The position numbers were made by a program, and so were the translations under genes. From positions 1-12,380 of the forward strand of contig JANLWX010000125.1 of assembly GCA_031364845.1 (NCBI GenBank): a stretch of 12,380 nucleotides of DNA, written 5' to 3'. How positions within the stretch are numbered: the first letter of the stretch is position 1; each line of letters starts with the position of its first letter. The notes beneath the pieces are model-generated. The model was given only the letters and a program-made list of their open reading frames with translations, did no database searches and had not been told where the DNA came from. Of the stretch, positions 3,069-10,872 are shown one piece after another. Origin of the DNA: Candidatus Eiseniibacteriota bacterium. GTDB lineage: Bacteria > Eisenbacteria > RBG-16-71-46.

Positions 3069-3854
3069 GTGAACCTGATCTTGCTCACCGAGTCCGACCG
3101 CGTGGACGGCGCGCACTTCCGCCTCACCGGTCCCCGGGCGAAGCACATCGCAGAGGTGCTGCGCGCGGAGCCCGGCCGCGAACTGCGCGTCGGGCTGCTC
3201 GAAGGGCCGCTGGGGCAGGGGACCGTTGTCGCGACGACGCAGGACGCTGCCGACCTCGACTGCGCGTTCGACGAGGTACCGCCGCCGCGCCCACGGACCG
3301 ACCTCGTCCTCGCGATCCCGCGCGCCAAGTCGCTACGAAAACTCCTCCCCGAGGTGACGGCACTCGGGATCGACCGTCTCGTTCTGTTCCGGAGTTGGCG
3401 GGTCGCGAAGCCGTACCTGACGCAGACGATTCTCGACCCGGCAGAGTACCGTCCGCTGCTGCACGACGGGCTGATGCAGGCGAAGTGCACGCGCGAGCCG
3501 GTCGTCAGCGTCGAACCGCTCTTCAAGCCGTTCGTGGAGGACCGCTTGCCCGGATTCACCGCGGGAGCGATGAAGCTGGTCGCACACCCAAGTGCATCGG
3601 AGTCGCTCGCCTCGATCCGCCTCGGCGAAAACGATCGCGTCGTCCTCGCCGTCGGCCCCGAAGGTGGCTTCGTTCCATATGAAGTCGAGGCGTTCCGGGC
3701 CGCCGGGTTCACGGCCGTCTCGATGGGGGACCGGACGCTCCGGGTTGAGACGGCGTGCGTGGCGCTGCTCGCTCAGATCGAGCTGCTGCGGCACGCGGGG
3801 AACCTCTCGGCCCAGAATCGTGCTCAGGTCGAAGTCACCGAGGCTTCCGAGTAG
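3069..3854 (+). CDS. rsmE: 16S rRNA (uracil(1498)-N3)-methyltransferase (SPOUT family)
   Basis: KHIAEVLR, LVLAIPRAK, VTALGIDRL and the SPOUT knot motifs LAVGPEGGF and SMGDRTLRVETA. GTG start, 261 aa. Confidence 0.93.
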   Translation: MNLILLTESDRVDGAHFRLTGPRAKHIAEVLRAEPGRELRVGLLEGPLGQGTVVATTQDAADLDCAFDEVPPPRPRTDLVLAIPRAKSLRKLLPEVTALGIDRLVLFRSWRVAKPYLTQTILDPAEYRPLLHDGLMQAKCTREPVVSVEPLFKPFVEDRLPGFTAGAMKLVAHPSASESLASIRLGENDRVVLAVGPEGGFVPYEVEAFRAAGFTAVSMGDRTLRVETACVALLAQIELLRHAGNLSAQNRAQVEVTEASE

Positions 3855-3913: not shown

Positions 3914-4216
3914 TCACTGGTACTTCTCTCCCCGCACCACGTGCACTTCCGCCACCCAGGCGACCAGCGCGTAGTGGGGGAAGTACCGCACGGCGAGCGC
4001 CTCGAGGATGCGCTCGGCAACCGCGTCCGTCACCACGACCTCGATCCGCAGGTTGTCGCCCTGCACGAGTCCCGACCTCATGTCGCGGGACCCTTCGCCC
4101 TGCGCATCGACCATGGTCCAGCCCTTCGCCCCCAATGCGAGCAGTTCCGCAGGGAGGCGTTCGGAGAGGACGGTCTCGCCCACGATCGTGACCAGCTTGA
4201 GGGGGACTGTGTGCAT
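3914..4216 (-). CDS. sbtB: P-II-like regulator, SbtB type
   Basis: 100 aa. KLVTIVGETVLSERL...GAKGWTMVDAQGEGSR...NLRIEVVV matches the SbtB/P-II pattern. It starts 1 nt after the sbtA stop (TGA-A-ATG), with a GGAGG RBS inside the end of sbtA. Confidence 0.85.
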   Translation of the reverse strand: MHTVPLKLVTIVGETVLSERLPAELLALGAKGWTMVDAQGEGSRDMRSGLVQGDNLRIEVVVTDAVAERILEALAVRYFPHYALVAWVAEVHVVRGEKYQ

Positions 4217-4217
4217 T

Positions 4218-5186
4218 TCAGCCTCCGTGTATGGCTCGCGCGATGGAGTAGTAGATCGGGATCCCGAACAGGACGTTGAACGGGAACGTGATCGCGAGGG
4301 ACGAGGTCAGGTAGTAGGTCGGATTCGCGGTCGGAAGATTCATGCGCGCCGCGGGCGGCGCCGCGATGTACGAGGCGCTCGCGGCCATGGCGCCGAGCAT
4401 CGTGCATCCGCCCACCGAGAGTCCGGACAGCTTTCCAAGGAGTACGCCGAGCGTTCCATGTGCAATCGGCATGAGTACGCCGAACGCACACAGGAACCAT
4501 CCGACCTTGCGCAAGTCCGAGATGCGGTCCGCGGCGAGGATCCCCATCTCGAGCAGGAACAAGGTGAGTGCTCCCTTGAAGCCGCCGTCGAAGAAGGGGC
4601 CAACGGCCTTCCAGTGCTGCTCGCCCATCAGCAGCCCGACAATGAGCCCTCCGACCAGGAGGATCATCGTGCGCCCGGTGAGCACCTCGTGAAGGGTCTC
4701 GCGGACGGGCCGGCCACCCCCGGTCTGAAGCACGCCGATCGCGAGCGCGATATGGATCCCCGGGCTCTCGAGCAGCGTGAGAAGCGTGGGCATGAATCCT
4801 TCGGGTGTCTGGCCCATGGCCGTCACGAAGTTCTGCGCGGCGATGTAGGTCACGGCGGACACCGAGCCGTAATGTGCGGCGATGGCTGCGGAGTTGGCCG
4901 CATCGAAGCGGCCCATGTGCCGCAGCACCAGGTACGACGTGACCGGCGTGATGCATCCCAGCAGCAGCGTGACGGCCGCGGGTCCAGCAAATTGATGCGG
5001 GGAGGCGTGGCTCAGTTCCACGCCTCCTTTGAGCCCTAGCGCGAACAGCAAGTAGATGGAGAGTGAGGCATACAGATCCTTAGGCAGCCGGAACTCACTC
5101 CTGATCAGGCGAGCAAGCACGCCGAGCGCAAACGCCAGGACAACGGGCGAGAGCAGGTTCGTCGCCAGGATCTGAGAATTGCTCAC
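4218..5186 (-). CDS. sbtA: Sodium-dependent bicarbonate transport family permease (SbtA/DUF897)
   Basis: 322 aa, highly hydrophobic. Family motifs LSIYLLFALGLKGG, AAHYGSVSAVTY, LLESPGI, FLLEMG, ASASYIAAP, SLAITFPFN. The GTG start overlaps the carbonic anhydrase stop (GTGA). Confidence 0.92.
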   Translation of the reverse strand: MSNSQILATNLLSPVVLAFALGVLARLIRSEFRLPKDLYASLSIYLLFALGLKGGVELSHASPHQFAGPAAVTLLLGCITPVTSYLVLRHMGRFDAANSAAIAAHYGSVSAVTYIAAQNFVTAMGQTPEGFMPTLLTLLESPGIHIALAIGVLQTGGGRPVRETLHEVLTGRTMILLVGGLIVGLLMGEQHWKAVGPFFDGGFKGALTLFLLEMGILAADRISDLRKVGWFLCAFGVLMPIAHGTLGVLLGKLSGLSVGGCTMLGAMAASASYIAAPPAARMNLPTANPTYYLTSSLAITFPFNVLFGIPIYYSIARAIHGG

Positions 5187-5857
5187 CTTGACGGGTTTGC
5201 CGGAATGGCCGTCACCACGCCGGTGTCGAGATCGTATACGCCGCCCGCAATCTCAACGCTTCCATCCTGGATCGCGTTCGCGACGATGGGCCCTGCCCCC
5301 TTGAGTTGCGCAACGACGGCCGCGACGTTCTGGCGCGCCGCTCGCTCCAGCGACTCGGGCGTGGCCGTCTCGGGTCCGCCCACGGCAGGTTCGATTGCCT
5401 CGAGGACCTTGCCGATGCTGCCGGGCACTTCGGTGTGCTCGAGCGCTGCCTGTACGGCGCCGCAACGTTCGTGACCGAGCACGAGGATCGACCCGGCGCC
5501 GAGCTTCGCGAGGGCGAACTCGATGCTCCCGAGTGCCACATCGTCCACGACGTGGCCCGCAGTGCGCACCACGAAGAGATCCCCGACCCCCTGGTCGAAC
5601 AGGAGTTCTGGAACGACGCGTGAGTCGGAGCAACTGACGATCACCGCGAACGGCTTCTGCTTTGCGGCGACCTCCTGCCTGCGCTGGCTGGACCGGTTTG
5701 GCCCCTTTGGCTTGCCGGCTGAGAAGCGCTCGTTGCCTTGCATGAGTCGTGTGATGCCGCCGGCCGGGCCTGCGGCCGGCGCAGCTCCGGCTGAAGCCGG
5801 ATGGGGCAGGGTCGTCAGCGAAAGAAGGGCGACGGCAATCAGGGCACGAGTCTTCAT
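5183..5857 (-). CDS. Beta-class carbonic anhydrase with N-terminal Sec signal peptide (predicted periplasmic)
   Basis: Zn-ligand motifs CSDSR and HERCG, plus LMQGNERF, QKPFAVIV and GDLFVVRTAG. N-terminus MKTRALIAVALLSLTTLPHPASA is a basic + hydrophobic + AxA signal peptide. The ATG overlaps the purK stop (TGATG). Confidence 0.93.
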   Translation of the reverse strand: MKTRALIAVALLSLTTLPHPASAGAAPAAGPAGGITRLMQGNERFSAGKPKGPNRSSQRRQEVAAKQKPFAVIVSCSDSRVVPELLFDQGVGDLFVVRTAGHVVDDVALGSIEFALAKLGAGSILVLGHERCGAVQAALEHTEVPGSIGKVLEAIEPAVGGPETATPESLERAARQNVAAVVAQLKGAGPIVANAIQDGSVEIAGGVYDLDTGVVTAIPANPSR

Positions 5858-6975
5858 CAGCGGATCCTTTCCATTTCGGGAGTGTGTGTCTTCATCTCGT
5901 GTTCGAAGTGCTTCATCCGCTCCAGCACCAGCGCCGGGGCGGCGGCGTTAAACGTGACGTGGCCGACCTTGCGGCCTTCCCGCGGGGCCTTGCCATAAAC
6001 GTGCACGTGAGCGTCGCTCACCGACAGGACACGATGGAGGCGCGGGATCTCGCCCAGCAGATTCACGAGACCGCTGTGTCCTCGTGGTTCAGTGGATCCC
6101 AGCGGGAGGCCGGTGACGGCGCGCACATGGTTCTCGAACTGACTCGTGACGGCGCCCTCGATCGTCCAGTGCCCGGAGTTGTGCACGCGCGGCGCGAGTT
6201 CGTTCACGACCAGCCGGCCCTCGTGCTCGAAGCACTCGATCGTGAGCACACCCACATAGTCGAGGGCCCCGAGAACACGCACCGCAAGCGCTTCCGCCTC
6301 GAGGCGGAGGGCCTCGGACACTTCGGGAGCAGGCGCGAGCGCGCTTGCGAGTACGCCGCGCGATTGACGCGTCTCAACCAGCGGATAGATTCGGATCTCG
6401 CCATTGAGCGCCCTGACGGCGATGACCGCCAGTTCGCGCTGGAAGGGGACGCGCTTTTCAAGCACAGCCGGCCGCCGGCCGATGGCGTCCCATGCTCGCT
6501 CGGCAGCGGCTCGTGATTCGATCGCGACCTGGCCGCGCCCGTCATAGCCCTCACGCCGTATCTTGAGAATCGCAGACGTTCCCAGCCGTTCGATCGCCAC
6601 TCGAAGCGTGGTGAGGTCATTCACTTCGGCGAACTCGGCAACACGAGCCCCGAGGCCGAGCATGAAGTGCTTTTCTTCGAGCCGGTCGCTTGCGGTCCGG
6701 CACGCCCGCAGGCAGGGGCGCACGGGGAGCCTCGTCTCGAGCCACTCCAGGGCGTCGGGCTCGACGTGCTCAAACTCGTAAGTGACGACATCGAGCCCGT
6801 CAGCAAAACGGGCCCACGCGTCGGGGTCGCGGTATTCACCCCGAACGTGCTCGCCGACCGCCGCGGCCGCTGGTTCGGGGGAAGGGTCCAGGAATCGAAA
6901 TCGAAACCCGAGTGGCAGTCCCGCCAGCGCGAGCATCCTGCCCAACTGTCCACCGCCGAGCACACCGATGGTCAT
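5857..6975 (-). CDS. purK: N5-carboxyaminoimidazole ribonucleotide synthase (ATP-grasp)
   Basis: MTIGVLGGGQLGRML, VVTYEFEHV, DRLEEK, GYDGRGQ, NELAPRVHNSGHWT, SQFENHVRA, YGKAPREGRKVGHV. The real start is ATG 6975 (or the adjacent GTG 6978), preceded by GGAGGAGG and overlapping the purE stop. The 7368 start in the ORF track is over-extended. Confidence 0.96.
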   Translation of the reverse strand: MTIGVLGGGQLGRMLALAGLPLGFRFRFLDPSPEPAAAAVGEHVRGEYRDPDAWARFADGLDVVTYEFEHVEPDALEWLETRLPVRPCLRACRTASDRLEEKHFMLGLGARVAEFAEVNDLTTLRVAIERLGTSAILKIRREGYDGRGQVAIESRAAAERAWDAIGRRPAVLEKRVPFQRELAVIAVRALNGEIRIYPLVETRQSRGVLASALAPAPEVSEALRLEAEALAVRVLGALDYVGVLTIECFEHEGRLVVNELAPRVHNSGHWTIEGAVTSQFENHVRAVTGLPLGSTEPRGHSGLVNLLGEIPRLHRVLSVSDAHVHVYGKAPREGRKVGHVTFNAAAPALVLERMKHFEHEMKTHTPEMERIR

Positions 6976-7502
6976 CACGAAACGGCCTCCTCCGTCGGGT
7001 GGAAGGGGACCGAAGCCGTGAGCGCCTCGCGATGCTTCCGCAATGCCTGGCGCGCCCATGGGTACCGAATCCCGAGCATGGCCGTTGCGAGGAGTGCGGC
7101 GTTGATTGCTCCTGCGCGGCCGATGGCCACAGTCCCGACCGGCACGCCGGCGGGCATCTGGACGATCGAGAGCAATGCATCGATGCCGCCCAGGCCGGTT
7201 GCGTTCACGGGCACTCCGAGCACGGGCAGCAGGGTCTTCGCAGACAGCATGCCCGGCAGGTGCGCCGCCCCGCCAGCACCCGCGATCAGCACCTCGATGC
7301 CTCGCGACTCGGCGGACTCCGCATAGGAGAAGAGGCGGTCCGGGGTCCGGTGGGCGGAAAGGATGCAAGCCTCGAACGGGACATCGAGCGAGCGAAGCGT
7401 GTCCGCTGCGGCCTGAAGGACCTCCCAGTCGGATCGAGAGCCCATGACCACTCCGACCAGGGGGCCGGTCGCCGCGCTTTGACTCGACTCGGAAGGTTCC
7501 AC
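6975..7502 (-). CDS. purE: N5-carboxyaminoimidazole ribonucleotide mutase (class I PurE)
   Basis: VGVVMGSRSD, SAHRTPD, AGAGGAAHLPGM (class I-type loop), PVLGVP, LLSIVQMPAGVPV, GAINAALLA. Start placed at GTG 7502 (175 aa, GAGAG upstream); the exact start is uncertain. Confidence 0.95.
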   Translation of the reverse strand: MEPSESSQSAATGPLVGVVMGSRSDWEVLQAAADTLRSLDVPFEACILSAHRTPDRLFSYAESAESRGIEVLIAGAGGAAHLPGMLSAKTLLPVLGVPVNATGLGGIDALLSIVQMPAGVPVGTVAIGRAGAINAALLATAMLGIRYPWARQALRKHREALTASVPFHPTEEAVS

Positions 7503-7552
7503 GACACTCTCATAAGGGGCAGGATGGGCGAAGTGGGCAAGGCCCCAACGGC

Positions 7553-7582
7553 TTGGCAGCACCGAGGCATGCGGAGTATAAT
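7553..7582 (+). promoter_or_regulatory. sigma70-like promoter for the winged-helix regulator gene
   Basis: TTGGCA (7553-7558), 18-bp spacer, perfect TATAAT (7577-7582), in an AT-rich patch of otherwise GC-rich DNA. Confidence 0.6.
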
Positions 7583-7606
7583 ACGCTCGCGTTTACACGA
7601 AGTCAA
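7578..7606 (-). promoter_or_regulatory. sigma70-like promoter for the purE-purK-CA-sbtA-sbtB operon
   Basis: On the minus strand: TTGACT (7606-7601), 17-bp spacer, TATTAT (7583-7578). Both hexamers are 5/6 matches to consensus. Confidence 0.65.
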
Positions 7607-7615
7607 TGTCGTGTA
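7594..7615. promoter_or_regulatory. Palindromic operator candidate TACACGA-N8-TCGTGTA
   Basis: Perfect 7-bp inverted repeat (7594-7600 and 7609-7615). Its 8-nt spacer contains the minus-strand -35 hexamer, and it lies just downstream of the predicted plus-strand start site. Confidence 0.6.
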
Positions 7616-7650
7616 TCACGCATCGCGTTATGCATTCGGGAGGGACCACG

Positions 7651-8028
7651 ATGATAAAAAAGAAGGCGGGCCGGACGGCCCGGCGCACAGACGCGGCCCC
7701 GTGGACGTTCCTCACGAACCACACCCACGTGCTGTTCTGCATCCAGCGCGACCCGAACGTCCGCATGCGGGACGTCGCCACCGCGGTTGGCGTGACCGAG
7801 CGGGCGGTGCAGCGGATCGTTCTCGAGTTAGAGGAGGCGGGCTACCTGGTCCGTACCCGAGAGGGCCGGCGGAATCGCTACGAGGTCCGCTCCAAGCAAC
7901 CGCTCCGACACGAAATCGAACAGCACTGCGATATCGCGGACCTGCTCGCGGTGCTGCTCGGTGCGCCAGCCCGGGCTTCCGCCGGCGCCAGGGGAGCCGC
8001 CGGGACTCGCTCGCGCGGCAAGAACTGA
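7651..8028 (+). CDS. Small winged helix-turn-helix transcriptional regulator (MarR/AsnC-like HTH, WTFLTNH family)
   Basis: ATG 7651 with GGGAGG RBS at 7638-7643, 125 aa. [11 protein letters not shown]...[33 protein letters not shown] (HTH), REGRRNRY (wing), PLRHEIE. Divergent from purE. Confidence 0.88.
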
Positions 8029-8044
8029 GCGCTCGAGTGAGAAC

Positions 8045-8122
8045 TGATTCCTGTCCACGGCTCATCGTGATATGTCCCATGGGGGGACATAATCACGTTG
8101 CAATTAAGGGAGGACAGAATCA
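8045..8122. repeat. Nested imperfect inverted repeat (long stem-loop) in the intergenic region
   Basis: Outer arms TGATTCCTGTCC (8045-8056) and GGACAGAATCA (8112-8122). Inner arms CGTGATATGTCCC (8066-8078) and GGGACATAATCACG (8084-8097). Each stem has one bulged base. Confidence 0.7.
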
Positions 8123-8305
8123 TCTGGCATCCACATCATGTGCAAAATTACTGTACCCGCGCCACCTGTGACCGCTACACTCTTCGAGGCGCATGAAGCA
8201 TCTGCGTGCCATGATCTCGGCTCTCACACCTCAGTGCGTCCCCTCCGCAATGTTTCCAGATTGGGCTAGACTAGGCGCCATCGCCAAGGGACGCAGGAAG
8301 CTCAC

Positions 8306-9126: not shown

Positions 9127-10872
9127 ATGAATTGGCTGAAGTCATCCTTGCTCTGCCTCCTTATAGGGACAGGGCTGTCGGTGGTGGTGATCCCCGACGC
9201 TCATTCCACCTGGATCAACGATGGCGTGGCGATCTCGCCCAACGCGACGAACTACAAGCCGTTCATCCTTTCGGATGGCATGGGCGGATCGTTCATCGCC
9301 TGGTACGGCGGGAGCGGCTCGGACATCTTCGCCCAACGGGTCCTGGCGAGCGGAGTGATCGCGCAGGGCTGGCCGTCAACGGGCCCTCTGACCGTGTCCG
9401 CAGCAACCGGCCTTCAGGAGCAGCCCGTCATGGTGAGCGATCTCACGGGCGGGGTCCTGATCTTCTGGCAGGACGCTCGCAACGGAGGCAACTACGACAT
9501 CTTCGGCCAGCACATCAGCTCCACGGGAGGCGTGTTCGGGATCGGGGCATCGAACTGGACCGGGGGCGGGATCTCGATCGCGGGCGCGACAGGCAACCAG
9601 TACGTTCCGGCCGCCGTTTCCGACGGTGAGGGTGGCGCGATCGTGGTCTGGCAGGACGGCCGGCTCGGTGCGGGCAACTACGACATCTACGCCCAGCGCG
9701 TCGACGGAGACGGCAACCGCATGTGGGCGTCGGCGGGCGTGCCGGTGTGCGTCGCAGCGAACAACCAGATCAGCCCCACCATCATCCCCGACGGCGTGGG
9801 CGGGGCGTTCATCGCGTGGCAGGACTACCGCAAGGGCAGCGAGTTCGACATCTACGCGCAGCACATCAGCGCGAGCGGAGCGGTCGTTTCCGGCGGGCGC
9901 TGGGTCGCCAACGGCCTGGGGATCTGCACCGCCACGAACTCCCAGTTCTATCCGACGCTGGCCTCGGACGGGGCAGGGGGGGCATACGTCGCGTGGCAGG
10001 ATTTCCGTTCCGGGACCGACAACCACATCTTTGCCCAGCGCGTGACCGGGGCCGGAGACGTCGCGCCGAACTGGCCGGCCAACGGTTCCGCCGTCTGCCA
10101 GGCGCAGTACTCGCAATACTACCCGGTGGTTGCCGGTGATGGCTCGCGTGGCGCGTTCATCGCATGGCAGGACTACCGCTCGGGGACCACCAACCACATT
10201 TTCGCCCAGTATCTGACGGCCAGTAATGTCGAGTTGGCTGATGACGGCGTCCCTGTGAGTCAGGCGGGCAACGGGCAGTTCTCCCCGCAGATTGCCAACG
10301 ACGGACAGAACGGCGCCTTCGTCACCTGGTACGACAGCCGCAGCGGCTCGACCAACGACATCTACATCCAGCGCATCGACAACCTTGGTCGCAAGTACTC
10401 GGGCTGGGATTCGAACGGCCAGGCGGTGTGTCTCGCCACCAACACCCAGCAGTTCCCGGTGGTCGCGACCAGCAGTCCCGGCAGTGCGATTCTGACCTGG
10501 CAGGATCTGCGCTCGGGAGGCACGACCACCGCCGCGATCTTCGCCGGTCTGGCGGTTGCCACGTCGACCGCTGCGGTCGATGAGATCCAAACTCTGGAAG
10601 CGACACTTGCGGCGCCGCGGCCCAATCCCTCGCGCGGCCCGACGAGCGTCCAACTGACTCTTCCGCATTCCGCTTTCGTTCGCGCTGACGTACTGGACAT
10701 CAACGGCCGACGCGTCGCGTCGCTGGCATCGCAGACGCTGCCCGCGGGAACGCATGCACTCGCCTGGGACGGAAGCATGACCGGAGGCGAACGTGCCTCA
10801 CCCGGTGTCTATCTGGTTCGCGTGAAGTGGGCCGGATTCGAGCGCACCCAGCGCATCGTGAGGCTCCAATGA
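9127..10872 (+). CDS. Secreted repeat protein (probable 8-bladed beta-propeller) with C-terminal FlgD-Ig/T9SS-CTD-like domain
   Basis: Start placed at ATG 9127 (MNWLKSSLLCLLIGTGLSVVVIPDAHS, signal peptide). Eight repeats of about 60 aa with consensus P-x3-DGxGGAxIAWQDxRxG-x-DIxAQxV. C-terminus PRPNPSRG...VLDINGRRV...WDGSMTGGERASPGVYLVRV. Confidence 0.87.
   Translation: MNWLKSSLLCLLIGTGLSVVVIPDAHSTWINDGVAISPNATNYKPFILSDGMGGSFIAWYGGSGSDIFAQRVLASGVIAQGWPSTGPLTVSAATGLQEQPVMVSDLTGGVLIFWQDARNGGNYDIFGQHISSTGGVFGIGASNWTGGGISIAGATGNQYVPAAVSDGEGGAIVVWQDGRLGAGNYDIYAQRVDGDGNRMWASAGVPVCVAANNQISPTIIPDGVGGAFIAWQDYRKGSEFDIYAQHISASGAVVSGGRWVANGLGICTATNSQFYPTLASDGAGGAYVAWQDFRSGTDNHIFAQRVTGAGDVAPNWPANGSAVCQAQYSQYYPVVAGDGSRGAFIAWQDYRSGTTNHIFAQYLTASNVELADDGVPVSQAGNGQFSPQIANDGQNGAFVTWYDSRSGSTNDIYIQRIDNLGRKYSGWDSNGQAVCLATNTQQFPVVATSSPGSAILTWQDLRSGGTTTAAIFAGLAVATSTAAVDEIQTLEATLAAPRPNPSRGPTSVQLTLPHSAFVRADVLDINGRRVASLASQTLPAGTHALAWDGSMTGGERASPGVYLVRVKWAGFERTQRIVRLQ

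Follow-up and report, generated by a model that had tools for sequence, protein, structure and literature searches.

The 12,380-base window analyzed here is an entire contig (JANLWX010000125.1) from the genome of a Candidatus Eiseniibacteriota bacterium (GCA_031364845.1, to be referred to as G000; 4.6 Mb, 66% G+C, 97% complete). Five genes, in the order purE-purK-beta-carbonic anhydrase (CA)-sbtA-sbtB, are located on its minus strand, and a winged-helix regulator gene is divergent from them on the plus strand. Gene content and neighborhoods argue that this is a modular low-CO2 kit, with purEK as its commonest enzyme cargo, and not a purine-dedicated pump, because the supply part (regulator-CA-sbtAB) also occurs without purEK and regulator-purEK occurs without an adjacent sbtA. 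The unit is probably de-repressed at low inorganic carbon (Ci), with hydration of CO2 outside the cell, import of HCO3-, a switch to the PurK route of purine synthesis, and spill-over of bicarbonate to other carboxylases. The pair formed by the regulator and a palindromic candidate operator is new here; the parts, and heterotroph operons with a transporter plus a CA, are already known. The features are as follows.

3914..4216, minus strand: sbtB, SbtB-type PII-like protein with no cysteine (PF00543; best Protein Data Bank (PDB) match TTHA0516/2CZ4, E 3e-29)
4218..5186, minus strand: sbtA, SbtA-family permease of a short, 322-aa type (PF05982, 370 bits, E 1e-110, model positions 1-307 of 308)
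5183..5857, minus strand: beta-CA, likely exported (PF00484; C76-x-D-x-R and H129-x-x-C132; best PDB match 1YM3)
5857..6975, minus strand: purK, N5-carboxyaminoimidazole ribonucleotide (N5-CAIR) synthetase, using ATP + HCO3- (TIGR01161, 369.6 bits, cut-off 318.4; best PDB match 3AW8, E 6e-116)
6975..7502, minus strand: purE, class I N5-CAIR mutase (TIGR01162, 190 bits, cut-off 149.6; SAHR and AGAGGAAHLPG motifs; tree placement)
7553..7582, plus strand: predicted regulator promoter, TTGGCA-18-TATAAT (consensus match only; its -10 overlaps the opposite -10)
7578..7606, minus strand: predicted sigma-70-type promoter of the five-gene unit, TTGACT-17-TATTAT (consensus match only)
7594..7615, no strand: palindromic candidate operator, TACACGAA-N6-(G/T)TCGTGTA, 22 bp, over the predicted purE -35 and just downstream of the predicted regulator promoter
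7651..8028, plus strand: winged-helix regulator of an unnamed family (WTFLTNH ... LRHxxExH), 125 aa (HTH_24/MarR_2 weak, E 3e-8)

Organization of the five-gene unit

A preliminary description of this stretch had reported the five genes and the divergent regulator at these positions, and its gene junctions are read directly in the DNA: TGATG for purE/purK (6975) and for purK/CA (5857), GTGA for CA/sbtA (5183-5186), and a 1-nt gap (TGA-A-ATG) between sbtA and sbtB. These junctions suggest coupling of the five genes. No canonical terminator is present downstream of sbtB. One metatranscriptome shared 0.07 of the words and gave 117 pieces at 85%; these are mostly less than 95% alike, being short fragments of relatives (about 90% alike), and none is shown to bridge two genes.

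The start of purE is most likely the GTG at 7502, and the protein has the class I loop motif GGAAHL. The purK gene is the only one found in G000 (one tblastn match); sbtA, sbtB and the regulator are also single-copy. PurK has its catalytic motifs and scores only 82 against the purT model (cut-off 502), so it is not PurT. Its best structural match, 3AW8, is presumably PurK of Thermus thermophilus HB8. In the beta-CA, the Cys/His/Cys zinc ligands and the Asp-Arg pair are kept (CSDSR at 76, HERC at 129). Its N-terminus is signal-like by hydropathy, with a basic start and values up to 3.4 over residues 5-12, and most sbtA-linked CAs have signal-like or twin-arginine-like N-termini as judged by eye. 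The cassette CA is thus likely exported.

The AlphaFold model of SbtA has a pLDDT of 84, and its best fold matches are five SbtA chains (TM 0.77-0.89). In sequence, the protein is at 25-26% identity to cyanobacterial SbtA1 (Slr1512-type), with a partial phmmer match (E 1e-23), and is not a close relative of it. The two helix-break motifs align, with substitutions; bicarbonate transport is a prediction. For SbtB, whose gene sits 3' of sbtA, the PDB matches next after TTHA0516 are cyanobacterial SbtB proteins (about 1e-8). The literature searched holds nothing on TTHA0516-0520 or 2CZ4. Among the profile controls, T. thermophilus is positive for both Sbt_1 and purK, and because of this its sbt and purK genes may be adjacent.

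Recurrence of the purEK-sbtA linkage

The phylum sample comprises 206 genomes and the host family 89; the tallies and the PurE tree include one unpublished genome (G038), on which no claim rests. In the phylum, sbtA is present in 11 genomes, and purK is found over the cut-off in 30, with 3 more partial matches. Nine of the 11 sbtA genomes have purK, as compared to 24 of the 195 others (Fisher p 1e-6, overstated since kin are not independent). This count includes the partial below-cut-off matches in G135, G157 and G081, and leaves out the below-cut-off TIGR01161 matches of family f11 (33 genomes, E about 1e-45), which are probably PurT.

A metagenome set was assembled from the best 80 of 590 confirmed sbtA loci (about 4800 exist), picked regardless of purine genes and carrying 561 kb of flank; L031 and L010 are identical in sequence, and the set includes some near-duplicate or short loci. 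The neighbors of sbtA in these 80 loci are sbtB (52), CA (19), the regulator (14), purK (9), purE (8) and tsaC (2), while accC, carB, purC, purM, purD and rsmE are found in none. In 7 of the 80, the distance from purK to sbtA is no more than 1.2 kb. The other two purK loci are near-identical, with purE 2.2 kb away and purK past a GGDEF-EAL gene; in L044 and L046, a PAS-GGDEF-EAL gene splits purE from purK, divergent from sbtA-sbtB. By chance, about 0.16 purK would be expected in the 80 loci, assuming one purK per 3.5 Mb.

Recurrence of the purEK-sbtAB linkage, on which the preliminary description had staked its proposal, is observed in other genomes and in other gene orders. These include purE-purK-CA-sbtA-sbtB, purK-purE-sbtA-sbtB, CA-sbtA-sbtB-purK, sbtA-purE-purK and convergent arrangements. 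In the SbtA and PurE trees, the purEK-linked loci are spread over several distinct branches. A scan of genome contigs with a single SbtA query gave 1 locus only. The supply part, regulator-CA-sbtAB, stands without purEK in G040, G133 and several metagenome loci. In G146 and G119, the regulator adjoins purEK and sbtA is elsewhere.

A second purE in a PurK-free purine core

In G000, a second purE is flanked by purD and tsaC, without an accompanying purK, as the preliminary description had envisaged for a core cluster. Its product is class I-like and not class II, with E values of 1e-45 to class I structures as compared to 1e-8 to 1e-9 to 3RG8 and PAICS. The cassette purE is a paralogue of this core gene (53% identical). 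In the host family, purE is found in 72 of 89 genomes and purK in 16 of 89, and the PurK-free state is the default. In a PurE tree of 53 rows, the 16 purD-linked, PurK-free copies are set apart as one clade (100/100); the cassette copy clusters with those from the regulator-purE-purK loci of G146 and G135. Two purE matches are present in four family genomes; three of these (G000, G135 and G146) have regulator-purE-purK, and the second match of G128 is partial.

The same combination is found in G206, a genome recorded as Candidatus Margulisiibacteriota, another phylum-level group. It has the core purD-purE-tsaC as well as a full cassette, in which the regulator accompanies enoyl-ACP reductase-purE-purK-CA-sbtA-sbtB. 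Both the host family and G206 conserve the purK-less purD-purE-tsaC block (L001:7497-9308, L218), and its PurE clade is long-branched. This PurE may be tuned for function without PurK.

According to the available parts of two published studies, PurE without PurK needs high CO2 or bicarbonate, PurK uses ATP and HCO3-, and the absence of purK tracks CO2-rich habitats (PMC3261824, PMC10880623).

The winged-helix regulator and its candidate operator

The regulator starts at the ATG at 7651, with a Shine-Dalgarno-like GGGAGG upstream, and not at 7606. It matches the MarR model marginally (24.8 bits, cut-off 24.6) and no NCBIfam family. There are 1236 homologues at E<=1e-10, and residues W18, F20, N23, H24, R86 and H87 (W-x-F-x-x-N-H and R-H motifs) are invariant in 111 aligned rows. 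The model has a winged helix-turn-helix (wHTH) fold, and no PDB fold match was found at E<=0.001 (best fold E 0.002, 13-24% identity; best sequence E 0.009). The ESM Atlas returned generic HTH cluster names only, a viral scan gave 1 unrelated locus, and look-ups by sequence or by words gave no match.

The regulator is likely a homodimer and a repressor. Its homodimer model scores 0.56, with 0.00 for the best control. This mark is reached by 20 of the 30 known pairs and by 1 of the 23 single chains, and the score may owe something to resemblance to solved wHTH dimers. The contacts agree to at least 88%, with pLDDT of at least 78. The modelled dimer interface is built from the conserved W-x-F-x-x-N-H and R-H motifs.

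The palindrome search was trained on 20 upstream regions, all outside the phylum sample, and TACACGAA-N6-TTCGTGTA is present in 15 of them. The window site, which was held out, scores 24.8, and shuffles reach at most 10.7; among the 11 held-out regions, 6 score above all 100 shuffles. With a matrix that excludes the window, the site at 7594-7615 is the top one in G000 (28.6; next 20.0; shuffled genomes 17.3 and 19.7). Three promoter-like sites are present, with 0.5 expected in shuffles. The position of the palindrome, over the purE -35 and behind the regulator promoter, is the predicted geometry of a repressor of both.

A site scoring at least 18 is located upstream of sbtA in 12 of the 14 metagenome loci that carry the regulator and in 3 of the 61 that do not, and none of 62 control windows has one; 10 of the 14 had fed the matrix, and 3 of the other 4 pass the same mark. 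In six loci (L034, L036, L041, L074, L174 and L176), the regulator is downstream of sbtA and the site still precedes sbtA; the site is therefore not merely autoregulatory. On plasmids of Arthrobacter and Nocardia, too, the palindrome is found in front of sbtA or DabAB. A tandem second site at 14 nt is found for 20 of 31 strong sites, which is a hint only, being partly built into the palindromic matrix.

Proposed function and alternative explanations

No Rubisco was found in G000, as had been anticipated: PF00016 has no match in this 97%-complete genome, and the same profile is positive in 5 of 14 controls. The 12 window proteins, searched against Pfam (with purE and purK checked against NCBIfam cut-offs), include no other pur, Rubisco or carboxysome family, as the preliminary description had also stated. 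Profile searches of G000 gave no match for DabA or CdhC and none over the cut-off for PEP carboxylase, and found COX1, AccC, CarB, PurC and PurM. These results suggest an aerobic heterotroph. An autotrophic CO2-concentrating mechanism, with a Rubisco sink and with or without a carboxysome, is not found by PF00016 or CdhC; markers of the reductive tricarboxylic acid and hydroxypropionate cycles were outside the search.

The unit likely rescues growth, and purine synthesis in particular, when CO2 is scarce. In the proposed mechanism, the dimeric regulator would leave its operator when Ci falls, in response to a Ci species or related cue that, as a guess, may be sensed at the His/Arg-rich dimer interface. 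The exported CA would hydrate external or leaked respiratory CO2, SbtA would import the HCO3-, and SbtB would tune SbtA. PurK and PurE would take over carboxylation of 5-aminoimidazole ribonucleotide (AIR) at low CO2, and the imported bicarbonate would also feed acetyl-CoA carboxylase (ACC), CarAB and TsaC. It is likely that purEK travels with the pump, not as part of a purine-only pump, because the core of the host has no enzyme for AIR carboxylation at low CO2.

The preliminary description had read the unit as a non-Rubisco carbon-concentrating module coupled to purine synthesis. Its genomic predictions hold, with no Rubisco match in the genome, a purK-less core purE and a recurrent linkage; dedication to purines is overstated, given G040, G133, G146 and G119. 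The term concentrating is doubtful because G000 has three beta-CAs beyond that of the cassette, one of them (C28) without a signal-like N-terminus.

Several observations weigh against the proposed mechanism. The C28 enzyme could dissipate imported bicarbonate. No purK is present at 71 of the 80 sbtA loci, many of them short. In the 14-kb stretch read of G142, neither the regulator nor the site accompanies purE-purK-sbtA-sbtB. In G119, regulator-purEK lacks the site, and the sbtA of this genome, which lies elsewhere, is preceded by a weak one only (12.4). The site is also missing at the other bicarbonate genes in G000: the core purD-purE, accC, carB and two CA loci score at most 1.2, and the third CA 14.3. 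G000 has no second strong site; those on C75 (20.0) and C105 (18.2) are close to the highest scores of the shuffled genomes (17.3-19.7) and are not beside Ci genes. The exact pattern is non-discriminating at genome scale because it matched 11 of the 206 genomes, 3 at regulator loci, as compared to 9 for the reversed control; a looser pattern, in five chosen genomes, matched the regulator locus in 3, plus two other places. Moreover, the queries used revealed no Ci gene near 3 of the 10 other regulators of the phylum or near 4 of the 5 found in the G206 group, and distant homologues (35-50%) often have no nearby carbon gene. For the transporter, 2 of 5 cyanobacterial SbtA2 proteins failed to complement, according to the available part of that study (PMC13187645).

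Plasmid records, of which 15 were inspected among 43 carrying the regulator, weigh in the same direction, with SbtA, DabAB or CA near the regulator in only 5. TerC adjoins it in 6 (one also with a Ci gene), STAS/ANTAR-type genes in 4 and isocitrate dehydrogenase in 1, and the operator precedes TerC genes in 4 of 8 records scanned. These TerC genes also favor the main rival explanation, in which the regulator and operator answer alkaline pH or ion stress (Mn, Ca, Na) and not Ci, and the cassette is a branch of an alkali-stress regulon, where bicarbonate uptake helps as CO2 is scarce at high pH. TerC/Alx is alkali-induced. Ca/Na antiporters recur near sbtA and the regulator, and the conserved His residues of the regulator could bind metal. 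However, all five phylum regulators that are at least 60% identical flank only purEK or CA-sbtA, and other regulators of the family lie beside DabAB with TsaC, beside a lone CA or beside a CO2-releasing isocitrate dehydrogenase, neighbors that have Ci and not ions in common. We consider this explanation unlikely.

A module dedicated to purines, in which the pump would exist to supply PurK, perhaps through local channelling, and would track the demand for purines, is weaker than the pH/ion explanation and improbable in our judgment. It draws on the fact that purK and purE are the only bicarbonate-using enzymes that recur tightly by sbtA (7 of 80, with AccC and CarB at 0 and TsaC at 2), and on the overlapping stop-start junctions. 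Against these stand the two genomes with regulator-CA-sbtAB and no purEK, the freely varying gene order, the enoyl-ACP reductase gene that heads the G206 unit, and an Rfam search that found no purine riboswitch and no other family in the window. Chance insertion, or hitch-hiking of purEK and sbtAB on one transferred fragment, would explain the patchy distribution, and the sole other genome of the genus has neither purK nor sbtA. This absence of functional coupling, also weaker than the pH/ion explanation, is largely refuted because the linkage has arisen repeatedly and independently, in at least five gene orders on separate tree branches, with control genes at 0 of 80 and a shared operator; it is very improbable. 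De-repression at low Ci is the explanation that we prefer.

Comparison with known systems

The pair of transporter and partner resembles cyanobacterial SbtA1-SbtB1 (Synechocystis Slr1512/Slr1513; PDB 7CYE, 7EGK, 7EGL, 8ZOR) in Pfam families, fold and sbtA-sbtB order. However, the window SbtA is 25% identical to Synechocystis SbtA1 and has 322 residues instead of 374. Synechocystis SbtB carries a redox loop, whereas the window SbtB has no cysteines. No Rubisco or carboxysome genes were found, the likely exported CA and purEK are in the unit, and a wHTH regulator is found instead of a LysR-type one. The cyanobacterial regulators CcmR and CmpR are of the LysR type.

The distance of the window SbtA to SbtA1 (about 25%) equals that between SbtA1 and SbtA2 of alpha-cyanobacteria, and both the window SbtA and SbtA2 have a small SbtB partner (PMC13187645). 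The available text of the SbtA2 study deals with cyanobacteria and reports dependence on chloride and not on sodium, bicarbonate import in E. coli for 3 of 5 proteins, and lower uptake with SbtB2 (PMC13187645).

Heterotrophs in air need a CA or a transporter, with PurK among the sinks, and supply by MpsAB/DAB plus CA is needed in air and feeds ACC, PurK and carbamoyl phosphate synthetase (CPS), as described in the accessible portions of two preprints (bioRxiv 10.64898/2026.09.08.750065, 10.1101/476713). The ndhF-mpsB-canC operon of B. subtilis, like the window unit, has a transporter and a beta-CA together (same preprints). In contrast, its transporter is of another family, for which G000 has no match (DabA), and purEK is absent; the accessible part of the 2026 preprint leaves its regulation open (bioRxiv 10.64898/2026.09.08.750065).

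The window purE-purK pair shares genes, motifs and NCBIfam cut-offs with the usual bacterial operon of class I PurE and PurK. It differs in being a second, accessory copy, apart from other pur genes and behind a new operator, in a host whose core PurE has no PurK. The regulator shares with MarR/ArsR-type repressors the wHTH fold, a predicted dimer, and a palindrome over divergent promoters, but it has no solved relative, its own WTFLTNH/LRHxxExH signature and its own operator. No description of a purEK-CA-sbtAB operon or of this regulator was found in the literature searched, whose coverage excludes most subscription journals.

Regulator and candidate operator beyond the cassette

A broader reading is possible and is put forward tentatively. 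The WTFLTNH winged-helix family may be a previously unrecognized, cross-phylum Ci-sensing repressor of non-photosynthetic bacteria, with its operator marking a low-CO2 regulon (SbtAB, DabAB, CA, PurEK, TsaC) and switching purine synthesis from the PurK-free, high-CO2 route to the ATP-driven PurK route. If so, TerC proteins under the same operator would be candidates for unknown functions in carbon or pH. How heterotrophs sense and respond to CO2 shortage is poorly known, and the locus gives a concrete regulator-operator pair, the part that could prove larger, with copies in cultured Arthrobacter, Pseudonocardia and Deinococcus. The locus also suggests a two-mode purine pathway in one genome, with PurE alone at high CO2 and PurK-PurE at low CO2. 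Relatives without the cassette may need raised CO2 for culture, and the large non-cyanobacterial SbtA clade is a possible source of transporters.

On actinomycete plasmids (L231:2242, L233:1945, L234:2336 and L235:1230), the palindrome is located before TerC-family genes, with the regulator adjoining. TerC and Ca/Na antiporters recur near sbtA in metagenome loci, and such TerC proteins may belong to a low-CO2 or alkaline regulon. On a Nocardia plasmid (L172:1-5154), DabB-DabA is divergent from two regulator-family genes with TsaC and DUF6671. TsaC is a bicarbonate user. DUF6671 is likewise a neighbor of sbtA at three loci on Arthrobacter plasmids (L174, L176 and L222). In Deinococcus psychrotolerans (L173:3334-5318), the regulator, together with a double site, is divergent from a CO2-releasing NADP isocitrate dehydrogenase. 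A plasmid of Arthrobacter sp. U41 (L222) has six regulator matches together with sbtA, TerC and a Ca/Na antiporter, and its record names Lake Untersee, which is alkaline and CO2-poor.

Other features of the window

The intergenic region at 8030-8300 is AT-richer (59% G+C block) and may be the edge of an acquired piece; it is followed by a 260-aa secreted protein without a Pfam match. On the other side, convergent with sbtB, is the gene for the RsmE 16S rRNA methyltransferase (3069-3854), a gene found beside none of the 80 metagenome sbtA loci. A secreted 784-aa protein (589-2943) has carboxypeptidase-regulatory-like and PKD domains and a long Gly-rich tail. Two more secreted proteins (22-573 and 9127-10872) have terminal FlgD-Ig domains, one of them with beta-propeller-like repeats. 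Secreted proteins that end in FlgD-Ig are common in Eisenbacteria-like lineages.

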